Shown here: positions 47,292 to 64,000 of the stretch, one piece after another
How the letters are laid out: each line of letters starts with the position of its first letter
Numbering within the stretch: the first letter of the stretch is position 1
Assembly (NCBI GenBank): GCA_963663765.2
Contig: CAXXUA010000006.1
Coordinates: 32,001 to 96,000, forward strand
DNA length: 64,000 nucleotides
Reading direction: 5' to 3'
Source: Candidatus Poribacteria bacterium
GTDB taxonomy: Bacteria > Poribacteria > WGA-4E > WGA-3G
Made by a program: the position numbers and the translations under genes
Notes under the pieces: model-generated
What the model saw: the letters and a program-made list of their open reading frames with translations, nothing else
Databases searched by the model: none
Told to the model about the DNA's origin: nothing

Positions 47292-47942
47292 TCAGATTAG
47301 TTCCCGGATTTTATCACGAAAATAACAGAAACTTGGTGACTTGTTATTATTGATGTCCATATATGGTGTAATATTTCTTGCCCACTCTGATTTTTCCTTA
47401 CCGATTATAAACCAAGGCTCATTTTCAAGCACATTTGACCCTCCAGGATATATTGCATCAGCCAGATTTTCCCACGTATTGCAAATGGAGTCATTTTGAT
47501 AACTATTCAGGATGTTGGTTTTCGCTTTTGGATAAGCTTTCTTGATTGCGGTGAGATCACCAAGAAACCATGCTTCACCTTCTTCAATAGCAATGCAAAA
47601 TCGAGTTTTTGGTTTATGATTACATGCATTTAGGACAGAATTAAGTTCTTGTCGAAATGTTTTTAAGCACTTTCTATCTAAATCACAAACTACTATTAAA
47701 ACAGCTGGAAAGTTGTGAGGGTAATTGGAAAATGTTTTACCGTATCCATTGAGCAAGTTTGGAAGGCGGTCAAGTAAGATGCGTTTACTCGCGTCAGTGT
47801 GCCCTTGTAGATCTTTAGGAATGTGACCGATTCCTCGGTAACTATGGATTTTGTATGTATGTTGGTTGCCAATAATCTTTCGCATCAGAACTTTAAGTGT
47901 CTTTTCACCAGATTGATCTTCAACCAATATTTCAAAATGCAC
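47292..47942 (-). CDS. DUF4276-like TOPRIM-fold protein
   Basis: ILVEDQSG, VVCDLD, IEEGEAWFLGD, N.SPSF motifs. Confidence 0.72.
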   Translation of the reverse strand: MHFEILVEDQSGEKTLKVLMRKIIGNQHTYKIHSYRGIGHIPKDLQGHTDASKRILLDRLPNLLNGYGKTFSNYPHNFPAVLIVVCDLDRKCLKTFRQELNSVLNACNHKPKTRFCIAIEEGEAWFLGDLTAIKKAYPKAKTNILNSYQNDSICNTWENLADAIYPGGSNVLENEPWFIIGKEKSEWARNITPYMDINNNKSPSFCYFRDKIRELI

Positions 47943-47945
47943 TTA

Positions 47946-49316
47946 TCACCTCGGGTCAAGATAATCGCTGTACCAGAGTCCACCCAAGGGTAATCCTTCT
48001 TCCACAAGATTGTTTACAAGCGGATCTTCGCTTGCTCGGTGGATTTTGGAAAAACCGTCTTCACCCTTTTCCAAAATCCAAACCTCTTTTGGGTCCAATG
48101 CATCAATGAAGTATGGTTGATGCGTCGTAACAAAAACTTGCGAGCCACCTTTGCGTCCCGTTGCATGTGCTCGGAATTCAGTGGCGAGAATCTCCAAAAG
48201 TTTGTGATATAGGTAGTTTTCCGGTTCTTCAATGCAGAGAAAAGGTGGTGACGTTGGTGCTTCCAGCATTAGGAGATAGGCAAACAATTTTAGTGTTCCA
48301 TCGGACATCTGCTGTGCGTAAAATGGGTCTTGAAAACCTTTTTCGTTGAATCTAAGTAACAACTTATTGTCTTCTGTCTTTTTAGTGTCAATTTTTTCTA
48401 TACCTGGAATTTTTTCTGCGATTTTTTTTAGAATTACTTGGAAACGTCGAGGGTGTTCGCCCTCCATAAATTGAGCAAAGTTTCTTAGGTTATTACCTTG
48501 TTTATTGAGATATTCTTGCGGACCAGCAAATTGTAAGTTACGTGCTGCATCTGGAGAGAAGTAACTAAGAAACCATCCTTCAATGAAACGGCGGAAGGCA
48601 GAAATTCTCGGATGCTGTTTTAAGGCACCGAGCGTAGCAATACCAAGTTTTCGAGGATTATCCAATTCAATAGTCTCTGTTTCACTTGACTCCTCTGCTT
48701 TTATAGATTCAAGAGCAGCTTGTAGATCTAGGTTGAATTGAATGGCTAAATCTTCATTGTCTTTTTCAATCTGGAATCCTTCTTGAACATCAGTTTCTTT
48801 GGACACTTCTGATCCAATGGATTTAATTAGTTCTTTCAGGTCGTTAAATTGGTACCCGTCTTGATTACCTTTCCATACCACGCCACTTCCATTAATAAGA
48901 TCTAAAAAAGAGAAAGGTTGGCCGTATTTCTGATTCTTTCGTCTCTGTCTGAGTCTTTCATAGCGAACATAAGGACGTCCTACACTGTCAGGTGCAATAG
49001 CAATTTTGTATGTAATAGGTCTTGCATTTCCATGTTCTCTATAATATACATCAAATTCAATAGGACCTATTGCACCTTGTGACCGAATTCTCTCAAACCC
49101 CCCGCGCTCATCACATGCTGCCTCAACATCAAATTTTAGGGCATCTGCTAGGAAACCAAACGCATCAAATAGTGTAGTCTTACCAACTCCATTTTTTCCA
49201 ATTATTGTTGTTATGGGAGTGAGTGCTTCTGTTTTTTTTTGGCCCTGTAGCCGCCCTAGTGTTACATCATTGAGGACTCCATAGTTTCTTACTCTAAAAC
49301 CTTCTAATATTGCCAT
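47946..49316 (-). CDS. ABC-type AAA ATPase (AAA_21-like)
   Basis: GKNGVGKT, MSDGTLK, IEEPENYL, VTTHQP. Confidence 0.85.
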   Translation of the reverse strand: MAILEGFRVRNYGVLNDVTLGRLQGQKKTEALTPITTIIGKNGVGKTTLFDAFGFLADALKFDVEAACDERGGFERIRSQGAIGPIEFDVYYREHGNARPITYKIAIAPDSVGRPYVRYERLRQRRKNQKYGQPFSFLDLINGSGVVWKGNQDGYQFNDLKELIKSIGSEVSKETDVQEGFQIEKDNEDLAIQFNLDLQAALESIKAEESSETETIELDNPRKLGIATLGALKQHPRISAFRRFIEGWFLSYFSPDAARNLQFAGPQEYLNKQGNNLRNFAQFMEGEHPRRFQVILKKIAEKIPGIEKIDTKKTEDNKLLLRFNEKGFQDPFYAQQMSDGTLKLFAYLLMLEAPTSPPFLCIEEPENYLYHKLLEILATEFRAHATGRKGGSQVFVTTHQPYFIDALDPKEVWILEKGEDGFSKIHRASEDPLVNNLVEEGLPLGGLWYSDYLDPR

Positions 49317-49908: not shown

Positions 49909-52900
49909 CTAATCATCTGCGGGGACGGCAGCACCTAATAGTTCTTCATCAGAAACGGGGCGGAAACGTGCTTCTGGGTCTTTGAGGAAAAATGCCCGAA
50001 GGTCAGTGATGATTGCATATAATGCAGGCATGACAAACAACGTCATCAACGTTGCAAATGCAAGTCCGAAGATAATGGTATATGCCATCGGCATCCAGAT
50101 CGGAGATTTTCCACCTAATCCAAGTGCCATTGGGATAAGTCCGATAATTGTCGTCATTGATGTCAATATAATTGGACGCAAGCGGATACTCCCCCCTTTC
50201 AGAATAGCATACCATCGGTTGTGTCCTCGTTCTCTGAATTTGTTGATAAAGTCTATCATTACAATAGAATCATTAACGACGATTCCTGCGAGTGCGACTA
50301 TACCAAACATTGCAATCATGCTGAGCGTTGCATTAGAAATCAGCAATCCAACCATCGCCCCTATCATACCGAAGGGTACCGCAAAGAGAATGATTATGGG
50401 TTGCGTAAATGACTTGAATTGTGCACCTAATATCATATAGATAACCAGGATTCCGACAATGAAGAGTTTCTGTAGGTCTGCGAATGATTCCCGGATTTCA
50501 TCAAAAACACCTCTAAAATCCAACCGATATCCTGGGTATAACGATTCTATATTTGCAAACGACGTCATCAATGCTTCGGTCACTGCAAATGGAGTGGTTT
50601 TATCTCTATCAACGGTGGCATAAACAGAAATTGCACGTTCACCTTCAAACCGTCGGATATCCGAATAACCTTTTTCTTCAACGATATGCGCAACATCCTT
50701 AAGAGGCACTGTTGTCCCCATAGGAGTTGTAATCAGCATATCCTTTATTTGTTCAATTGTCTGTAAGCGATTTTCATCATATTTGACGATGACATCAATT
50801 GCGTCATCCGCTTCACGATATGTTGTAGCTTTTGCGCCTTCAATTGCTGTCCGAACAGTCTGTGCAACTTGTAGCGTTGACATACCGAAATATGCAGCTT
50901 TTTCAGATTTCAAATAGATGCGTAATTCTGATTTACCTATACGAAAATCGTCCCGAATGTCTTCGACACCATCAATCTCACCAAGTGTTCCCTTAAGTCT
51001 TTCAGCAATTTCTACCAATTGTTCAAATTTATCACCTTTGACTTTCACTTCAACATCCTGTCCTTGGGGTGGTCCTCCTTGCAGTTTGACAAAGTTTAGT
51101 TTTTCGATTCCACTGATGTTAGTAGTTTTTTCCCTTAAAGAAGCAATGACTTCATCAGTATTTCGTTTACGTTCACTCTTGGGTACAAGTTCTACGATAA
51201 GTTCTGCATAATTTGAGCCGTAAGTGATTCCCTCAAGAAGTCCAGAAGTAGGTGTATGCAGTCCGATATTTGTGACTATTGCATCGACCTCATCTTCAGG
51301 CAGTTGACCTGCTGCTTCCTCAACTTTGGCAATTGCCTCCGTTGTTTGTTGTATCCCATAAGATGGTGGCATTTCGGCTTTGACGTAGAATTGCGGAAAA
51401 TCTTCTCCCGGAAAGAGTTCTTTGTCAAGAAGTATGAACCCACTAGCACACACAATCAAACCGATAAAAAGCACACTACTTACAAAGATATATCGTTTTC
51501 GTATCGTAATTTTGAGAATTCTGACATATCGGTTCCGGATAAAATCAAAGATTGTCAGAAACCATGCAAAAAACCCAATGACGCGGATACTCGCAGTAAA
51601 AGCACCACGTGACCGAGTTCGCAGGTTTTCAAGTCTACTACGTCCAGTCCGTGTTCTGGCTTTACCCCATTCAGATACGTGTGCTGGCAAAATAACAAAG
51701 ACTTCAAAGAGAGAAGCGACCAAGACAATGATAGCCATTATCGGTACAATCCGCATAAACTGACCAGAAACACCGGACATAAACATCAAGGGACCAAAAG
51801 CACCAATAGTTGTCAAACTTGCAGCAACAACGGGCCAACCGACCTCTTCGGCACCACGAATAGCAGCAACTTTTGGAGATGCGCCTGCCTCAATATGACG
51901 ATATGTGTTCTCTATAACAACAATTGCATCGTCAACAACAATTCCAACAACCAAGATGAGACCAAACAGTGCCACGCCGCTTAGCGAGTAACCAGCAATT
52001 GACATGAACCAAAAAGTCGCCATAAATGCGACAGGAATACCAAGTGCTGCAAAGAGCGCATTTCGCCAGCCAATAAATAGGAACAGCATCAGTATAACAA
52101 GAATAAGTCCGAAAATAGCATTTGTTTCAAGAATACCCAACCTTTCTTTTAATATAACAGAATAATCATTGACTGGTGTTAGTACTGCACCCTCGGGTAA
52201 ATCGTTTTGCTTTTCTTTAACTAAATCACGTAGTTTTGCGACTAATGTGATTGTGTTCCCCTCACTTTTTTTCTGGACGCTCAGACTAATGGAGGGTTGT
52301 CCACTGATTCGAGAAAGCGTGCGTGCTTCCTCATAGGTAGAGGAAACTTTTGCAACATCGCGCAGACGAATCGGTGTTCCAGAAGGTTGTACTGCAATAA
52401 TCGTGTCCCCAATAATTTCCGTGTTTGAAAATTCGCCCATTGTGCGCACCATAAATTCGGAGTTGCCAATTTCCATGGTGCCTGCAGGTATATTTAAATT
52501 GCCAACTTGTAATGCTGTTGAGACTCTTTCAATCGGTAGGTTATATGCCTTTAAACGGTCTGGATCTACTTCAATCCATATCTCACGTTCACGTAATCCA
52601 GCAATTTGCACGGATGCAATATTCTTGATTTCTAATATCTCATCCCTAAGATCCTCAGCGATTTCTCGCATCTGTAACTCTGTAATGCTTCCTCCAACAA
52701 CGATAGTTAACATTGGAAAACCGGACGCTATGTCCAATTCAAGTACTGCTGGATCGTCTAAAATCTCCTCTGGTAAGTCATTAACTTGTTCAACAGCAGT
52801 TCTTAGATTCTCCATCTCCTTATCGAATTCACGATCACTCATCTCATCAAAATCAATAGTAATAATTGATCTTTCTTCTGAGGATGTAGAAAGCATTAAG

Positions 52901-53136
52901 TTTATTTTATTAACATTTTCTTCAATAGAATCCTCAATAGTTGCAGTAACGAGTTTTTCTACCTCTTCGGGAGATGCTCCCGGATACAAGGTTGTTACGG
53001 TCGCTGATTGGAGTGCAATTTCTGGTGTGAGTTCACGTGGTAGGTTTATCCATGCATACAACCCAAAAATGATGATAAGAATCATCAACATATTGGCAAA
53101 TACCGGGTTGTTCACAGACATTCTTGGAATGGACAT
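49909..53136 (-). CDS. RND efflux permease (AcrB/AcrD/AcrF family)
   Basis: YPGASPEEVE, GIVVDDAIVVIEN, RLRPIILT; two TM clusters; likely ATG at 53136. Confidence 0.92.
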   Translation of the reverse strand: MSIPRMSVNNPVFANMLMILIIIFGLYAWINLPRELTPEIALQSATVTTLYPGASPEEVEKLVTATIEDSIEENVNKINLMLSTSSEERSIITIDFDEMSDREFDKEMENLRTAVEQVNDLPEEILDDPAVLELDIASGFPMLTIVVGGSITELQMREIAEDLRDEILEIKNIASVQIAGLREREIWIEVDPDRLKAYNLPIERVSTALQVGNLNIPAGTMEIGNSEFMVRTMGEFSNTEIIGDTIIAVQPSGTPIRLRDVAKVSSTYEEARTLSRISGQPSISLSVQKKSEGNTITLVAKLRDLVKEKQNDLPEGAVLTPVNDYSVILKERLGILETNAIFGLILVILMLFLFIGWRNALFAALGIPVAFMATFWFMSIAGYSLSGVALFGLILVVGIVVDDAIVVIENTYRHIEAGASPKVAAIRGAEEVGWPVVAASLTTIGAFGPLMFMSGVSGQFMRIVPIMAIIVLVASLFEVFVILPAHVSEWGKARTRTGRSRLENLRTRSRGAFTASIRVIGFFAWFLTIFDFIRNRYVRILKITIRKRYIFVSSVLFIGLIVCASGFILLDKELFPGEDFPQFYVKAEMPPSYGIQQTTEAIAKVEEAAGQLPEDEVDAIVTNIGLHTPTSGLLEGITYGSNYAELIVELVPKSERKRNTDEVIASLREKTTNISGIEKLNFVKLQGGPPQGQDVEVKVKGDKFEQLVEIAERLKGTLGEIDGVEDIRDDFRIGKSELRIYLKSEKAAYFGMSTLQVAQTVRTAIEGAKATTYREADDAIDVIVKYDENRLQTIEQIKDMLITTPMGTTVPLKDVAHIVEEKGYSDIRRFEGERAISVYATVDRDKTTPFAVTEALMTSFANIESLYPGYRLDFRGVFDEIRESFADLQKLFIVGILVIYMILGAQFKSFTQPIIILFAVPFGMIGAMVGLLISNATLSMIAMFGIVALAGIVVNDSIVMIDFINKFRERGHNRWYAILKGGSIRLRPIILTSMTTIIGLIPMALGLGGKSPIWMPMAYTIIFGLAFATLMTLFVMPALYAIITDLRAFFLKDPEARFRPVSDEELLGAAVPADD

Positions 53137-53217
53137 GTTGGGAAATATTCTCCTTGATGTTATACTAGTGTTCAAGCATGTGTTTTCAAAATCATTTCAG
53201 TAATTGATTATCAATAC

Positions 53218-54711: not shown

Positions 54712-55323
54712 CTAATTTGCTGGTGGCAAAAAATGGTAATAGAGTAGTGTGTTTGCAAGTGCCACCAGTATTCCAAAGATTGCTTGAAGGACTGTATGTC
54801 GTTTGCGGTAAATCCGCGCCCAAGCAATTAGGGGTATCAACAAAAAAAGCAACAGTAAGTATTTGTTAACAATCAATGACAGGACAATTATACAACCCGT
54901 TGCAACGCTTGTGTGGAAACTAATCTTCCAGAACGGTGTTATGATAGTAAAAACAATAGCGTTTATGATGAATGCTTGACACACCCAAATTACTGTATCA
55001 TTTGCATCAATCCAATTTAGCATGATTATACCTACAAACATGCTTAAGAAAGTAAAGCATAGTGGTATTAGTCGTTCCTCTTTTGTATGTAAATGTATAT
55101 TGCTAACCCTTGAAAACCGATATAGCAGGACTATACCTAAGATGGGTAGGATGGATACGAAAATCGCAACGATTGTTAGCCAAAGGAATAATTCCTGACT
55201 CGTATTTGCAAGTTTGCCAATAACGAATATTGCAGTAATTATTGGAACAATTAACGGACTAAAAACAATAGAAGTAACCAGAGCTATCCGTGCGGGAAAT
55301 ACCGATAAAGAATTATGTTCCAT
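54712..55323 (-). CDS. PAP2-like multi-pass membrane protein
   Basis: KISFHT and WARIYRKRHT..Q motifs; TAATG overlap with the upstream peroxiredoxin. Confidence 0.65.
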   Translation of the reverse strand: MEHNSLSVFPARIALVTSIVFSPLIVPIITAIFVIGKLANTSQELFLWLTIVAIFVSILPILGIVLLYRFSRVSNIHLHTKEERLIPLCFTFLSMFVGIIMLNWIDANDTVIWVCQAFIINAIVFTIITPFWKISFHTSVATGCIIVLSLIVNKYLLLLFLLIPLIAWARIYRKRHTVLQAIFGILVALANTLLYYHFLPPAN

Positions 55324-56342
55324 TAATTGCTTTTTGGTTTTTCAAGGTTCTTGACGATTTCTACTAAATCTGCCCCATGTGTACTGGGATTAACCTCTTT
55401 CACAATCTTCACGATCTTACCTTCTTTATCAATGACAATCGCCATTCGTTTTAGACGTTCATCATCCAGTTTCTTTACTGCACCGAATAGCAATGCAAGG
55501 TTCCTGTTGGTATCTAACAATAGTGGAAAGTTCAACTTATTTGCTTCTGTAAACTTCTGGTGAGATTCAGCATCATTATGTGTTATTCCAAAGACTTGCA
55601 CGTTATGCTTTTCAAAACTACTCGACTCATCACGGAGCGAGCAAACTTGTGCAGTTCAGCGATTACCAAAATCCCTTGGATAGAACGATAATACGACATT
55701 CTTCTTATCTTTGAATTTGCTGAGTTGGTGCTGTTTTTCTTCACTATCCATAACGATAAAATCTGGTGCAAATTGTCCAACTTTTATTTTAGGTAGGGCT
55801 TTCTTTAGAAGTTTAACGACATCTTCCCCGTGTGTCTTTACCTTAACTTTCTTGTCAATAGCGCGTATATATCCCGCCTTATCAATAACGAAGGTTGTAC
55901 GCTTTGAGGCATTGAACCTTTCCATGACACCGCTATACTGCTTGCTGACTTCAAATTCGGTATCTGCAAGGAGCGAAAAACCGAATTGTTGTTCCGTTTT
56001 GAACCTTTTGTGTGAATCAACTGAGTCAACACTGACGCCGAACAAGACAGTTTCGTTTTTTTCTATTTCGCTCAATTTATCCCGGAGCGATTTTAGTTCG
56101 GTCGTTCAACCACCCGTAAAGTCTTTGGGGTAAAATGCAAGGACGACGTTTTTCTTACCCAAAAATTCGTTAAGATTTCGTGCTGTGTCAGTTTCGTCTT
56201 TTAGTGTGAAATTCGGTGCAATCATGCCAACTTTGAGTTCTTTTGGTTTTTCCACTTCTTTCTCCGCTAATACTAATGGAATAATCAATGTTGCAATTAA
56301 CAGTACTATTCCAAAATGAATAATTGATGGTTTTTTTAGCAT
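55323..56342 (-). CDS. Exported tandem BCP/PrxQ-type peroxiredoxin with two predicted selenocysteines (339 aa)
   Basis: Single frame across TGA 56106-56108 (FYPKDFTGG-U-TTELK) and TGA 55656-55658 (FYPRDFGNR-U-TAQVC); both at the peroxidatic Cys position. Confidence 0.85.
55619..55643 (-). promoter_or_regulatory. SECIS-like hairpin 2
   Basis: UGCUCG-CUC-CGUGAU-GAG-U-CGAGUA with a bulged U, 12 nt 3' of UGA 55656. Confidence 0.7.
56068..56090 (-). promoter_or_regulatory. SECIS-like hairpin 1
   Basis: UCGCUC-CGGGAUAAAUU-GAGCGA, 15 nt 3' of UGA 56106. Confidence 0.65.
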
Positions 56343-56480
56343 CTATGAATACCTCACATTTAGGATGAATTACATAATGAAAAATTCTATTCGTTTTTTC
56401 ATGACCAAAACCAATAATAAGCGTTCATTATGTAAAGTATAATCTATTCTCATCTTGGTGTCAAGAAAACTCACTGGGAG

Positions 56481-57010: not shown

Positions 57011-57553
57011 TTGTCATTTCTCTTGTGGGAGGGGTTTTCAACCCCGATTATGCACTATTCCAATTGTGAAATCGGGGTTGAAAACCCCTCCCACAATAGT
57101 ACATTTCGGACAATTAAATACCTTACCCGTTTTCATTTGGAAATAACGCCTTTTTCTTGAAGCCAAACCTTCAAAGGTACGTCCGCGTCTTTCGGTAAAA
57201 AATGACCGTTTGCATTCGTGCCACCGCCAAGGAGTTGTTGCCGAATGGGGTCGTTTTGTTGGAATAATTCTGTTGGTATTGTCATTTCTCTTGTGGGAGG
57301 GGTTTTCAACCCCGATTATACGGTATTCCAATTGTGAAATCGGGGTTGAAAACCCCTCCCACAATAGTACATTTCGGACAATTAAATACCTTACCCGTTT
57401 TCATTTGGAAATAACGCCTTTTTCTTGAAGCCAAACCTTCAAAGGTACGTCCGTGTCTTTCGGTGAAAAATGACCGTTTGCATTCGTGCCACCGCCAAGG
57501 AGTTGTTGCCGAATGGGGTCGTTTTGTTGGAATAATTCTGTTGGTATTGTCAT
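57011..57553. repeat. 268-bp tandem duplication (3' end of the PhyH gene plus a REP doublet)
   Basis: 57011-57278 matches 57279-57546; TTGTCAT at all three junctions. Confidence 0.9.
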
Positions 57554-58264
57554 GTCGTCTTTACTACGCAACCATCGATATCCATATCCATAAAACAGTC
57601 CTTTGCGTGTGATGTCAGAGTCATTTTGGCTGCGTGCATGCCATATCCGTCTGTCAAAAAAGACTGCATCTCCAGGTTTGCAGCAAACTGCCGTTGCTCC
57701 ATCAGGAAGCGACCCGTCTTCAGCTCGTTTTAGTGTATCCCATAGATGGCTTCCGGGAATTACATAGAAGTTCCCTCGTCCTTCCTGTGCACAGTCAGAA
57801 AGCCAGTAGACAACTTTGAGTGACAAACGCGGTCGCGGGGTACTTTCTATTTCTATGTTGACACGACCACTATCCTGATGCCAACCGAGTGATGAAGTTT
57901 TCCCACGCATTGATTCTGGACGTGGTGGTGTGATGATAAAATGACTATGATATGAGTATATATTCCATCCCAAAATACCCCATACCTTTGGAAAAGTCTT
58001 ATACCAATCCAAGACATTTATAAATAACTGGTCTTTACCCAGAAAATTTGGATAGAAAAAATTGTCGTGTCGTGTCATCCGTTGTTTTCTGTAGGGGTCA
58101 TATTCAGCATCCAGATGCATTTTATAGATAGCATCAATACGTTGCTCTAACTGAACAACAAGCTCTAATGGGAGTGCGTCTTCAACGAGTAAATAACCAT
58201 CTGTATTTAACGCAGATAGTTGTTCGTCAGTGATTTGATGTTGCAGATGACGTTCATCAAGCAT
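57401..58264 (-). CDS. Phytanoyl-CoA dioxygenase (PhyH) family protein
   Basis: DGYLLVEDAL, WHQD, VIPGSH, PGDAVFFDRRIWHARSQN. Confidence 0.88.
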   Translation of the reverse strand: MLDERHLQHQITDEQLSALNTDGYLLVEDALPLELVVQLEQRIDAIYKMHLDAEYDPYRKQRMTRHDNFFYPNFLGKDQLFINVLDWYKTFPKVWGILGWNIYSYHSHFIITPPRPESMRGKTSSLGWHQDSGRVNIEIESTPRPRLSLKVVYWLSDCAQEGRGNFYVIPGSHLWDTLKRAEDGSLPDGATAVCCKPGDAVFFDRRIWHARSQNDSDITRKGLFYGYGYRWLRSKDDMTIPTELFQQNDPIRQQLLGGGTNANGHFSPKDTDVPLKVWLQEKGVISK

Positions 58265-59427: not shown

Positions 59428-60597
59428 GTGGTGAAAATGAAAGACACAAATAACAATAAGAACAAGCAAAATGAAGAAGCACTTACAAATGCGGAAAACA
59501 GTGTCGCTGATACGAAACCCGATGCGACTACCTCTATAGAAACATCTATTCAAAACCAGTTCAATGAACTAAAAAGCGAGTATTTAAACACACGATCTAA
59601 TTTCGTTAATCGGTTGTTAGTCTTTATATGCATCGTTCTGGTGTTTTTTACAATTGCAATTCCAGCAATAACTGCTATAGCAGCGTATTTTGTTTATTTT
59701 AAATTTGAGGAAGCACAAACCCAAATGCAAAACAATCTGAATGAAGCGAAAAACTTTGCTATAACAGCTGAAACGAGTGCCAATGAAGCTGCACAGTCTC
59801 TCAAAGTCATTAAGGAACATCAAGTAAAAATAAAAGAAATCGTATCAAAACTAACAAGTAAAGACTTTAGTAATCCCAATAAAGCCACAATTCTTAACAC
59901 AACCCTTCAAGAAATTATACAGAATCCTGAATTAACTCTTGAAGACAAGGCTACTCTTGAAGCGTATAGTCTGCAGCATCAGGGTAAAAATACAGAGGCA
60001 ATTGAGAAATGGAAATCAATAGCTGACACTGCAAAAGGCAAGAATAATGACTTGGTGGCACGCGCGTTTTTCTCTATAGGTTATCTTCATAATGAACAGA
60101 ATGAAAAGGATCAGGCACTCTCCGCTTATGACCAAGCTATTGAACTCATGCCAACTTTTGCTGATGCATATATGAGTCGGGGTATATTGAATAGCGCAAT
60201 TGAAAAAAATGAGGAAGCAATTGCTGATCATAGCGAAGCGATTCGACTAAAACCTGATTACGCTGAGGCATTCCTCTATCGTGGAATTGCAAAACTCGCT
60301 CTGAAAAAACATGAGGACGCGATTTTTGATTTTGACGAAGCGATCCGACTCAATCCGAATTCTGCACTTGTTTATGTACAAAGGGGTGTTTCTAAAAGCG
60401 CGCTGGGTCAGCATAAGGATGCAGTCGGTGACTATGACGAAGCGATCCGACTCAGTCCAAAGTTCGCTGAGGCATATATGAATCGTAGTGCAGCGAACCG
60501 TGCATTAAATCAGATGGATGCTGCACAGATGGATTTGGACAAAGCATTGGAACTTGCGAAGGAACAGGAGGACGAGACAAAGGTTGATGGTGAGTGA
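59428..60597 (+). CDS. Membrane-anchored TPR protein
   Basis: N-terminal TM segment and coiled coil, then ~5 TPRs (AIRLxPxxAEAY..RG). Confidence 0.85.
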   Translation: MVKMKDTNNNKNKQNEEALTNAENSVADTKPDATTSIETSIQNQFNELKSEYLNTRSNFVNRLLVFICIVLVFFTIAIPAITAIAAYFVYFKFEEAQTQMQNNLNEAKNFAITAETSANEAAQSLKVIKEHQVKIKEIVSKLTSKDFSNPNKATILNTTLQEIIQNPELTLEDKATLEAYSLQHQGKNTEAIEKWKSIADTAKGKNNDLVARAFFSIGYLHNEQNEKDQALSAYDQAIELMPTFADAYMSRGILNSAIEKNEEAIADHSEAIRLKPDYAEAFLYRGIAKLALKKHEDAIFDFDEAIRLNPNSALVYVQRGVSKSALGQHKDAVGDYDEAIRLSPKFAEAYMNRSAANRALNQMDAAQMDLDKALELAKEQEDETKVDGE

Positions 60598-60646
60598 AAT
60601 CCTAATTAAGAAAATTATTTTGTGTAAGAAATTAGGTGGCGTATAA

Positions 60647-63265
60647 ATGGATACTAAACAATTGAATGAAGGCGATCAACAAACGTCTGAGATCGTACAG
60701 AAGGTGGAATCTGAACAAACAGAAGATTCTCCTGATAATACGACAGATGAAGATGTTTCCATTGATAAACGAAAAATTCTTGAACGCATTTGGAAATTTT
60801 GTCTTCAACATCCTTTAGCTGCTGCTACATGCGTTGGTGTAGTTCTTGGCGGTATTGGTACACTTCTTCTTGGTATTGCTGCAATTCGTCCTGACAGCTC
60901 AAATTTGAGCTTAAAAGGTGAAGATATCGTCAAGTTTATTCAAGCTGTAAAATCTGATGAAACGTCACAAATTGAAAAATCACTGCAGAAGGTTGAGGAA
61001 AGTACTAAGGCTTCTATTATGGACAAGGCGGTGGTAGAAGCCTTCAGGTTGCAACAAGATGGGAGAATTGATGAGTCCATTGAAAAATGGCTTTCTATTG
61101 TAAATGTTGTAGAAGGAACCAAAAAAGATTTAACCGCAGCTTCTTGGTTCTTTCTTGGTAATCTCTATTCAGAAAAGGATGAAAGAGAACAGGCTCTATC
61201 AGCTTACGATAAGGCTGTTGCCTTAAAGCCAGAATTTGCTAAAGTTTATGTGTTTCGAGGTAGTGTATATGATTCACTTGGCAATTATGAAGAAGCAATT
61301 GCTAACTTTAATACTGCAATTGAACTGAAACCTGATTATTTTATTACTTACTTGACTCGAGGAAATACTCTGAGTAACCTTGGTAAACATCAAGAAGGTG
61401 TAGTTGATTGCAACAAAGCAATTGAAATAAAACCTGATTTTGCTTTTGCTTATGTGGTTCGTGGAAACGTTATGAATAATTATGGTAAGTATGAAGAAGC
61501 CATTGTTGATTGCAACAAAGCAATTAAAATAAAACCTGACTCTTCGTCTGCTTATCTGATTCGTGGTAATGCCTTGAACGCTCTTAGTAAACATAAGGAA
61601 GCAATTGCTGATTACAATAAAGCAATTGAATTGAAGAGTGATTCTGTTAATGCTTATCTGTTTCGTGGAATAGTCCTGAAGAATCTTGGCAAATATGAAG
61701 AAGTGATAGCAGGTTGCAACAAAATTATAGAAATAAGACCAGATTTCGCTCCTGCCTACTTTATCAGAGGTAATGTGTTTAGTACTCTTAATAGGCACCA
61801 AGAGGCGATTGCTGACTATGATAAAGTTATTAATCTTGAACCTGAATTTGTTGAAGTGTATTTAAATCGAGGAAATGTCCTGAAGAATCTTGGTAAACAT
61901 AAAGAAGCAATTACTGACTACGACAAATTGATAAGTCTAAAACCTAATTATGCTGTGGCATATACAAATCGAGGAACGGTAAAAGATGATTTGGGTAAAC
62001 ATGTAGAGGCAATTGAAGATCATAATATAGCATTAAATCTAAAACCCGATTAAGCTGTAGCCTACACAAACCGTGGAAATTCCTATGAGAAACTTGGTGT
62101 ATTTGTGAATGCACTTGCTGATCATCATAAAGCAATTAGTCTTAATCCTGAGATAGCTGCGTTTTATTATAATCGAGCTATTGTATTGGGAAAACTAAAA
62201 AAGTATAAGGAATCAATTGTTAACTATGATCAGGCCATAAGACTCAATCCCGATTTTGCTTTTGCTTACCTAAACCGAGGTAATATAAAGAGTTTTCTTG
62301 GAGAACATAAAAATGCGATCACTGATTATGATAAGGCAATTAATCTAAAGCCCGATTTTGCTGATGCATACCTAAACCGAGGTAGTATTAAGAGTTTTCT
62401 TGGAAAACATGAGGAAGCAATTATTGACTTTGATAAAGCTATAGATTTGGATCCTGAATCAGCTGAAGCGTATGCAAATAGAGGCACTGTGCAGAGTAAG
62501 TTAGAGAAATATAAAGTAGCTATTAAGGATTTGGACAAAGCGATTAATCTAAAACCGGATTATGCCTTAGCCTATGCTAATAGGGGGATAACGAAGAATG
62601 CACTTGGAAAATATAAAGAGGCGATTATAGATTATGACAATGCAATTAGTTTAAAACAGGATTTTGATCAAGTTATCTTGAATCAGGGGATAACCCTAGC
62701 CGACGTATACTACAATCGTGGTTTTGCAAAGGATGCAATTAAAGAATATGAAGAAGCAATCCGAGATTTTGACGAAGCTCTCACACTAGATCCTAATTTA
62801 ATTGTAGCATTGGTAAAAAGGGGTCATACGAAAAAGGTTCTTGGGAGATATGAAGAAGCAATCAAAGATTACGATAAAGCCATAAATTTGAAATCAGATT
62901 TTGAAGGGTTTTACAAAGATCAAAACGTAACGCTTGCATGGGTTTACTACAGTCGGGGAATTTCCAAAGATGCAATTAAGCAACATGAAGCAGCGATCAA
63001 AGATTATGATGATGCTATTAGACTTAAACCGGATGATTTTCAAATCCACTTTAAACGAGGCAATGCAAAAAGCAAACTTGGTCAATATAGAAGTGCAATT
63101 GATGACTATAATGAAACGATAAAGTTAAAACCAGATGCTGCGATTGCTTATTTTAATCGTGGAATTACAAAGGAAGATATAGGTCAGTATGATCAGGCAA
63201 TTACCGATTATAGTGAGGCAATTCGTCTTAAACCAGACGCAATCAAATATTATACTAGTAGATAG
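60647..63265 (+). pseudogene. Large membrane-anchored TPR protein, broken by an in-frame TAA and truncated by IS630
   Basis: ORFs 60647-62053 and 62105-63265 share a frame; KPD-TAA(62051)-AVAYTNRG; ends mid-repeat at the IS. Confidence 0.8.
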
Positions 63266-64000
63266 TCCATTCTAATTGTTCGGGTATAGATGTTTTAATC
63301 GTACGCGTGCATCGTCCGTTGTAAATTGCCAGTTTACCTGCTTTTGCTCTGCATTTCGCCGTTTTTGCCAGGCTTGTGTCTCTCTATGGAGTGTCTCTAT
63401 ATCTGGGATACGCCGACACAAACATTGACGCGTAAGGACACTCAGTTCTATTTCCGCTATATTCAACCAACTTCCATGTACTGGCGTATGCACGATTTCT
63501 AAACGCTTACGCAACCTATTTGCTTCCTCATCTCCAAACACTTTATTGAGCGTCGAAAGTTTGTGTATATTCAGGTTGTCACAAACTAAAATCACACTTT
63601 TTGCTGATGAGTAGTCCTGATCCAATAGTATTTTTACTTCTTCTGCCCAATCCTCTGCCTTTCTGCGCGTCCGAACAGACACACGCCTCCATCCCGATAA
63701 TGCTTCTGTGAATAGGAAGATATTTGCCGTGCCTTTGCGTTTATACTCATTATCTACACGCTTGACTTGCCCCGGTTTCACAGGATGCGGATCCCGAACA
63801 TCATCCCTAAGCGTGACAGATTGTTCGTCCATGTTCACAACAGGTATTTCTGTATCTAAAGGTTTCTGGTAAAGATCAAGCACTTCTTCCATCGACTTTA
63901 CAAACTCAGCATCTTTTTCAGGGGGAATCACCCACTGTTGCTGAAGGTGCGGCTTCAAAGCGTTTTTTTTAGTGTCTGTCTTACCGTTTCTGGAGAAATG
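63255..64000 (-). mobile_element. IS630-family element (partial)
   Basis: Adjoins a TA inside the TPR gene; A8 run at 63963-63970 joins ORF A (ETVRQTLKK) to ORF B (NALKPH); boundary approximate. Confidence 0.8.
63272..63958 (-). CDS. IS630-family transposase, DDE part
   Basis: VNMDEQ, VCDNLNIH, HTPVHGSWLNIAEIE, VNWQFT..DAR.RL..LYP. Confidence 0.88.
   Translation of the reverse strand: MKPHLQQQWVIPPEKDAEFVKSMEEVLDLYQKPLDTEIPVVNMDEQSVTLRDDVRDPHPVKPGQVKRVDNEYKRKGTANIFLFTEALSGWRRVSVRTRRKAEDWAEEVKILLDQDYSSAKSVILVCDNLNIHKLSTLNKVFGDEEANRLRKRLEIVHTPVHGSWLNIAEIELSVLTRQCLCRRIPDIETLHRETQAWQKRRNAEQKQVNWQFTTDDARVRLKHLYPNN

Follow-up and report, generated by a model that had tools for sequence, protein, structure and literature searches.

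The gene and its reading frame

The stretch of DNA analysed here comprises 64,000 nucleotides (nt) of a Candidatus Poribacteria genome (contig CAXXUA010000006.1, positions 32,001 to 96,000; hereafter the window, with a G+C content of 42.8%) and carries on its minus strand, at 56342..55323, a reading frame of 339 codons plus TAA, starting with ATG at 56342-56340 and ending with the stop at 55325-55323. The sole interruptions of this frame are two TGA triplets, at 56108-56106 (codon 79) and 55658-55656 (codon 229). A first-pass annotation, made from the letters alone, had joined three open reading frame (ORF) pieces separated by TGA at 56106 and 55656 into one protein of 339 residues and had expected standard annotation to split it; frame reading confirms the joined frame, and translation table 11 indeed renders it as three ORFs, 56106..56342, 55656..56075 and 55323..55601. 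The evidence assembled below makes it very probable that the locus is one gene encoding a probably exported two-domain peroxiredoxin (Prx), both UGA codons of which are recoded as selenocysteine (Sec) by way of SelB, tRNA-Sec and the gene's own hairpins. Judged by sequence comparison, this is a real, conserved and mis-annotated gene for a tandem two-selenocysteine Prx, in which Sec would be inserted at positions 79 and 229. Its features are the following:

55323..56342, minus strand: gene of a two-domain peroxiredoxin with two in-frame UGA (putative Sec) codons, from frame reading, Pfam and orthologs
56265..56342, minus strand: N-terminal residues 1-26, MLKKPSIIHFGIVLLIATLIIPLVLA, a probable Sec-type (secretory) signal peptide or N-terminal anchor, from inspection
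55860..56231, minus strand: domain 1, AhpC/TSA, residues 38-161, from Pfam
56106..56108, minus strand: UGA 1, putative Sec79, TGA in 34/34 full-length orthologs read
56068..56090, minus strand: hairpin 1, candidate selenocysteine insertion sequence (SECIS), UCGCUC[CGGGAUAAAUU]GAGCGA, 6 bp, 15 nt after the UGA, from covariation and a synonymous trough
55380..55784, minus strand: domain 2, AhpC/TSA-Redoxin, residues 187-321, from Pfam
55656..55658, minus strand: UGA 2, putative Sec229, TGA in 39/39 sequences read
55641..55643, minus strand: codon of the protein's single true Cys, Cys234, five residues past Sec229, kept in 39/39 sequences
55620..55642, minus strand: hairpin 2, SECIS candidate, GCUCGCUC[CGUGAU]GAG(U)CGAGU, 8 bp with one bulged base, from RNAalifold and covariation

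Protein domains, active sites and predicted fold

The two AhpC/TSA domains proposed at first pass are recovered by Pfam as AhpC-TSA/Redoxin domains at residues 38-161 and 187-321 (E 5.7e-67), and the motifs quoted there (FYPKDFTGG-U-TTELKS, FYPRDFGNR-U-TAQVC, KRTTFVID and KRMAIVID) are all present. The active site of domain 1, FYPKDFTGG-U79-TTELKS, conforms to the Prx pattern PxxxTxxC/U, with PKDFTGGU and the catalytic Arg148 (55899-55901) invariant in alignment A4, and Ser85 occupies the position of the resolving Cys; from its sequence, domain 1 is of a 1-Sec type devoid of a resolving residue, comparable to the AhpE-like 1-Cys type. Domain 2 reads PRDFGNR-U229-TAQV-C234 and shows the UxxxxC resolving arrangement of BCP/PrxQ that domain 1 lacks, with Arg299 (55446-55448) or an equivalent in the aligned domain 2 sequences; Gly replaces the Thr of the pattern, which the domain 2 of this genus, PRDFG(R/N)(G/R)U, therefore does not match.

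The protein passes the NCBIfam Bcp model PRK09437 (187.2 bits summed over both domains, cut-off 140) and stays below the PrxU equivalog NF040737 (103.7 bits, cut-off 270). The best solved match of domain 1 is Mycobacterium tuberculosis AhpE (E 6.5e-22), with U79 aligned to its peroxidatic Cys ('FTGIC'), and Sulfolobus Bcp1 is also among its best solved relatives, whereas domain 2 finds 2ywn as best solved match (query 186-314). AlphaFold2, run on a 31-row alignment, returned a model with a mean predicted local distance difference test (pLDDT) of 88.5 and a predicted template modelling score (pTM) of 0.84, confidence being low solely at residues 1-5 and 21-32, and Foldseek matched this model to BCP, AhpE, Bcp1 and PrxQ with target template modelling scores of 0.84-0.91; a thioredoxin-type Prx fold in two domains is thus predicted. 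BCP/PrxQ and AhpE proteins are the best matches in both sequence and fold, namely the E. coli Bcp model PRK09437, M. tuberculosis AhpE (1xvw/4x1u), Sulfolobus Bcp1 (3drn) and Xylella PrxQ (3ixr). Domain 2 shares with BCP/PrxQ the CP-x4-CR spacing, and domain 1 shares with AhpE the missing resolving Cys; these relatives are single-domain, Cys-containing and mostly cytoplasmic, in contrast to the tandem described here, which has putative Sec at both sites and a signal-like N-terminus. The BCP/PrxQ assignment of the first-pass annotation stands insofar as BCP is among the best matches, and needs widening insofar as AhpE is too, so that sequence and model favour a BCP/PrxQ-AhpE-like rather than a strictly PrxQ protein.

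The N-terminus comprises a basic start (MLKK), a 20-residue hydrophobic core and an AxA-like site, V-L-A|E, and contains no lipobox Cys. AlphaFold2 predicts a helix at residues 8-24 with low pLDDT, and the ortholog N-termini are of the same kind and differ in sequence. On these features the protein is probably exported to the periplasm.

Conservation and variants across Poribacteria

Of 41 relatives, 37 gave matches that cover nearly the full length and contain two or more TGA codons, at 49-89% identity. In a wider draw across the phylum, 137 of 151 Poribacteria genomes matched at E<=1e-35, including 96/99 in family f1, 10/10 in f2, 26/26 in f3 and 4/4 in f4, and none of the 11 genomes from five other families did so; among the matches listed from this draw, none was free of internal stops. 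The recurrence of two TGAs at the same codons down to 49% identity far exceeds chance. When 40 loci were read codon by codon, 34 of them full-length, U occupied both sites in all 34 full-length loci, within FYPKDFTGG-U-T.EL.S-LRD and FYP.D[FM]...-U-T..V-C-SLRD. The TGAs are consequently conserved rather than strain-specific, and they align with the peroxidatic Cys of solved and database homologs, as the proposal of two Sec residues in the first-pass annotation implied.

The two active sites vary in different ways. Domain 1 has Ser in place of the resolving Cys in 34/34 full-length genome orthologs, and the metagenome relatives P0004, P0005 and P0012 do carry a resolving Cys in this domain (U-TAEL-C). 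Gly for Thr in domain 2 (PRDFGxxU) occurs, within the 40 loci, only in this genus, the other three families keeping PKDFTGGU or PMDMTPGU; the asymmetry of active sites that the first-pass annotation had described therefore holds within the genus and does not extend, in its Thr-to-Gly part, to the other families. Single-domain forms occur as well, each with one TGA: in genus g3 the gene is present only in a domain 2-like form, and in three genomes (G074, G130 and G071) single genes resemble domain 1. In a paralog (L053, G014:C108:3402-4307) the Sec site of domain 1 is Ser and the P..T motif is lost, with the U of domain 2 kept, and the metagenome paralogs P0016, P0019, P0022 and P0023 have Gly at the Sec site of domain 2 and Tyr at its resolving Cys; by their sequences, one active site has decayed in each of these proteins and the UGA of the other domain has been retained.

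No close Cys-containing ortholog was found, the nearest Cys tandems being 29-33% identical with a different second domain. These distant metagenome proteins (P0026, P0027 and P0032) likewise combine two redoxin-type domains with a signal-like N-terminus and have FYPKDFTGGC in domain 1, but contain Cys instead of Sec and differ in the type of the second domain, which has a CPxC motif; Cys at site 1 ('FTGGC') was seen among P0026, P0027, P0030 and P0032.

Coding constraint across the UGA codons

The ratio of non-synonymous to synonymous change (dN/dS) was calculated according to Nei and Gojobori for 22 genus-level orthologs, with 187 to 207 pairs per segment:

Before UGA 1, residues 35-78: dN/dS 0.059
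Between the UGAs, residues 80-228: dN/dS 0.078
After UGA 2, residues 230-330: dN/dS 0.111

With dS at about 1.3 in all three, each segment is under purifying selection; untranslated tails would differ, and translation therefore continues past both UGAs.

These values bear on the possibility that the gene is broken, the TGAs being true stops and the locus a pseudogene or three separate small genes. Table 11 yields three ORFs, as standard gene callers would, and a few relatives carry extra stops (TAA) in the matched range (G039 and G036). Against this, the two TGAs lie at the same codons in 137/151 genomes, with none lacking a TGA among the matches listed; dN/dS stays at 0.06-0.11 across the three segments; the fragments have no start codon context and each misses half a thioredoxin fold; and the Sec machinery, described in the next section, is complete. 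A broken gene is accordingly the least credible of the explanations considered, with hardly any weight left to it.

Selenocysteine machinery and the genetic code

The Sec machinery on which the two-Sec proposal depends is encoded in the same assembly, which is 97.8% complete, and comprises (i) a tRNA-Sec gene scoring 78.5 bits, called SeC with anticodon tca by ARAGORN, (ii) selB, located directly upstream of the tRNA-Sec gene, and (iii) selA and selD, all four being over their family cut-offs. The selD gene itself has one in-frame TGA (L018, C2:220603-221529, minus strand), which would place Sec within CAG-U-ASK. Three further Prx-like genes (C5:472277-472672, C5:473045-473422 and C8:52501-52938), two of them neighbours, each contain a single in-frame TGA, within a motif of the UxxC or UxxS type, and the genome looks selenoprotein-rich.

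A global reassignment of TGA was considered and rejected. TGA is the commonest ordinary stop among the window ORFs of at least 200 residues (n=34; TGA 15, TAG 11, TAA 8), and it also terminates the Prx gene itself in 6/33 orthologs, several times as TGA-TGA; such wide use as an ordinary stop excludes a genome-wide change of code.

A related explanation holds that the UGAs are read as Trp, Gly or Cys, through a changed code or near-cognate suppression. Public full-length versions of the protein (P0002-P0019) do show W at both sites; at least one of the W versions, P0003, also runs through a terminal TGA-TGA, ending ...NWWDLNHY, and they are for this reason best read as code-4 miscalls on short contigs. 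Furthermore, both sites are peroxidatic Cys positions, at which Trp or Gly would kill catalysis, TGA accounts for 15/34 stops in the window, and tRNA-Sec, selA, selB and selD are all present, which leaves this explanation very improbable, if marginally less so than a broken gene. Public protein sets thus have the gene either cut into fragments or given Trp at both catalytic sites, a systematic annotation error by which the protein is missed in functional surveys of Poribacteria.

Hairpins downstream of the UGA codons

SelB and tRNA-Sec would recode both UGAs, each guided by a separate hairpin within the ORF that begins 13-15 nt downstream. In the codon alignment, UCG CUC CGK GAU is near-invariant after both UGAs, with adjacent synonymous sites free to vary. 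The pairwise synonymous difference is 0.46 on average over the gene and drops to 0.14-0.25 (codons 85-92) and 0.13-0.29 (codons 235-245), the troughs spanning 6-16 codons after each UGA; an extra low stretch at codons 23-35 reflects a biased measure, its residues being shared by close relatives only.

Hairpin 2, which starts 13 nt after UGA 2, has the RNAalifold consensus GCUCGCUC[CGKGAU]GAG(U)CGAGY. It pairs in 99.7% of cells (38 distinct sequences), compared with 26-40% when the 3' partner is slid, and shows 5 compensatory cells, involving pair 18-38 (CG to UA, 2 cells) and pair 21-34 (GU/AU/UA). Hairpin 1 pairs in 90.4% of cells, compared with 22-48% when slid, and has 3 compensatory cells, with 2 pairs changed on both sides. 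An alternative short-loop hairpin at site 1, GCUC[CGGGAU]GAGU, was rejected, as it pairs in 65.9% of cells and exceeded no shuffle control.

Comparable elements occur elsewhere in the genome. A hairpin GCUC[CGGGU]GAGC lies 12 nt after the UGA of selD and resembles the GCUCCGKGAU core of the Prx hairpins, and the three Sec-containing Prx-like paralogs have 6-bp hairpins about 18-20 nt downstream of their UGA. A genome scan for TGA followed by CTCCGKG at 12-29 nt, with frames open on both sides, gave 4 matches, 2 of which are the Prx gene; at 4 matches genome-wide, this motif was discarded as a general SECIS signature of the genome. The two Prx elements form a natural pair of SECIS variants with loops of 11 and 6 nt, of use for a SelB about which little is known.

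Points weighing against selenocysteine insertion

Several observations weigh against the reading of the locus as an exported two-Sec Prx. A conserved hairpin follows each UGA, in line with the two-Sec proposal, although RNAalifold gave no consensus structure for site 1. Folding of the single downstream stretches is unexceptional (z-scores -1.4 and -1.2), the compensatory changes are few, and both hairpins fall on codons of the conserved peptide SLRD(K/E), so that protein constraint could explain part of the nucleotide conservation. The ortholog counts are non-independent, the sequences being related. Peroxidase activity of domain 2 is uncertain in this genus, given the missing Thr of PxxxTxxC, and the case for export comes from inspection of the N-terminus only.

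To these is added a lack of bridging transcripts. Four RNA-library runs, which probably amount to two data sets filed in duplicate, yielded only short contig pieces, comprising (i) an exact 163-nt piece at 55446-55608, (ii) a 149-nt piece at 55978-56126, which extends just 18 nt past UGA 1, and (iii) remaining pieces that match only the conserved stretch 55620-55660 and derive from relatives. No contig among them bridges a UGA, and carry-over of DNA is possible; being short as well, the pieces were set aside as evidence of expression.

Insertion in studied bacteria competes with release factor 2, and the read-through may accordingly be partial and selenium-dependent, with truncated products dominating and the double UGA acting as a selenium-sensing gate. 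Two serial sites would multiply any inefficiency, and hairpin 1 is the weaker of the two (folding energy -7.4 vs -14.9 kcal/mol). On the other side, the last segment is strongly selected (dN/dS 0.11) and both SECIS-like elements are conserved, from which it follows that the full-length product matters. Dominant truncation is therefore improbable, though it fares somewhat better than the two preceding explanations, and it does not exclude recoding of both UGAs as Sec, with which partial read-through is compatible.

Proposed chemistry

By analogy with established Prx chemistry, each selenolate of the two-Sec protein would reduce peroxide and become a selenenic acid. In domain 2, Cys234 would resolve this acid to a selenenylsulfide, to be reduced by a thioredoxin-like protein; domain 1, because it has no resolving Cys, would depend on a thiol from outside or on the redox centre of domain 2. 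Both the peroxidase activity and the nature of the reductant are taken over from known members of the family. The Thr-to-Gly exchange in domain 2 may be tolerated since Sec is already ionised, or may mark a shift to a relay role.

Such a role would be part of a Sec-to-Sec relay within a built-in pseudo-dimer, a tentative scheme that we regard as unlikely, in which domain 1 would reduce the peroxide and domain 2, which in this genus keeps U-x4-C without the Thr, would mainly resolve or relay. An inter-domain Se-Se or Se-S bond would transfer the oxidising equivalent of Sec79 to domain 2, which would then pass it on to a periplasmic reductant. The pTM of the predicted model is compatible with the fixed inter-domain packing that this scheme entails. 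If true, it would amount to a Sec-to-Sec mechanism within one exported chain, and we know of no Prx for which such a relay has been described. The two-Sec protein points to a selenium-dependent defence against peroxide at the cell envelope of a sponge symbiont that is dominant and uncultivated.

Origin of the tandem

A maximum-likelihood tree covered both domains (14 sequences each), 3 single-domain genes and, as outgroup, 10 other peroxiredoxins. The domain 1 sequences group together (100/97), and a second clade joins domain 2 with the single genes of genus g3 (100/98); relative to the 10 outgroups the two clades are sisters (90/78). This sister relationship and the SECIS core common to both units argue for an internal duplication in which a Sec-Prx unit was copied along with its recoding signal. 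The unit would have been duplicated together with its SECIS and then fused in the ancestor of one Poribacteria order; that this duplication and fusion predate the split of the four families has moderate support from the sequences, the outgroup sample for the duplication step being small. The gene would thereby provide a clean natural case of a selenoprotein unit duplicated together with its recoding signal.

In another genome, locus L057 (G031:C1:1503467-1504462) encodes a further tandem protein, unrelated and 28% identical to the query, whose two in-frame TGAs lie within the UxxC-type motifs FYRGKFUPFC and FYRGQWUPFC. Doubling of a Sec-redoxin unit may have occurred more than once in Poribacteria.

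Comparison with known selenoproteins

Sec-containing Prx (PF00578, TxxU) is a classical bacterial selenoprotein, listed with one Sec in the table of a 2026 review, and its family prototype is PrxU of Eubacterium acidaminophilum (PMC13188914). The Global Ocean Sampling survey found Sec-Prx abundant in marine metagenomes, with 253 Sec sequences, and its accessible text reports Prx fusions only with other domains (PMC2398784); a paper on Olavius symbionts, as far as its available part goes, lists Prx as a single sequence (PMC1976440). The protein described here shares with this family (i) the fold, the PxxxTxxU motif in domain 1 and the conserved Arg, and (ii) the UGA at the peroxidatic Cys with a SECIS hairpin within the ORF just downstream. 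It differs in having two fused domains, each with its own UGA and hairpin, a predicted N-terminal export signal and Gly for Thr in domain 2, and in scoring below the PrxU model cut-off.

Double or fusion selenoproteins attributed to Haft and Tolstoy 2025 include MbdU, the methyltransferase/UXPK-star protein and TsoB (UxxxxU), according to the excerpt consulted (PMC13188914). They likewise have two or three Sec decoded in one bacterial ORF, but belong to other families, and no Prx-Prx tandem is found among the table entries consulted in that source. The literature link between Poribacteria and Sec concerns hydrogenases (PMC13582414), and full-text searches, in which papers were seen in part, returned no other paper linking the two. 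Searches of the same kind returned no description of a tandem two-Sec Prx, with the reservation that supplements may still hold one. The enzyme type is known, and its doubled two-Sec form seems undescribed. The conserved fused pair requires two separate UGA recoding events, each with a SECIS within the ORF.

Genomic neighbourhood

The features flanking the Prx gene are the following:

56436..56464, minus strand: sigma-70-like promoter match, TTGACA-17-TATACT, 11/12, about 94 nt upstream of the ATG, by consensus match only
56352..56355, minus strand: GAGG, Shine-Dalgarno-like motif 9 nt before the ATG, from sequence reading
54712..55323, minus strand: 203-residue membrane protein with a weak PAP2 match, its start overlapping the Prx stop, from profile score

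Sigma-70-like consensus sites are about as frequent as expected in the scanned region (9 observed vs 8.3 expected). The downstream gene begins at the last A of the Prx TAA (TAATG), an overlap that the first-pass annotation had noted correctly; its PAP2 label is weaker, the score being 24.2 bits vs a cut-off of 27.2. The order GFO/IDH/MocA, PhyH, Prx and PAP2-like gene is kept within the genus, and the PAP2-like gene adjoins Prx in all genus-level loci with a downstream flank. It was not found beside Prx in 10 loci of the other families or in one paralog, nor do these share a neighbour of any kind; the Prx gene therefore stands on its own, and the functional link to the PAP2-like gene was dropped in favour of a local, genus-limited operon structure.

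The spacer between the PhyH-like and Prx genes is unusually long in this genome, about 1 kb, owing to a tandem direct duplication of 268 nt at 57011-57546, with copies 98% identical, which extends into the 3' end of the PhyH-like gene (57401..58264, minus strand). Each copy contains a 30-nt perfect-looking hairpin, CTCTTGTGGGAGGGGTTTTCAACCCCGATT plus its complement. In the only relative for which this spacer was worked out (L060), it measures 143 nt.

Further away, at 47292-49316 on the minus strand, a DUF4276 protein (216 residues) and an AAA_21/AAA_15 ATPase (456 residues) form a gene pair that looks like a small defence-type module and adjoins an AcrB-family transporter at 49909-53175. Three successive TPR-repeat proteins are encoded at 59428-63265 on the plus strand, followed at the end of the window by a DDE_3 transposase gene at 63272-63958 on the minus strand.

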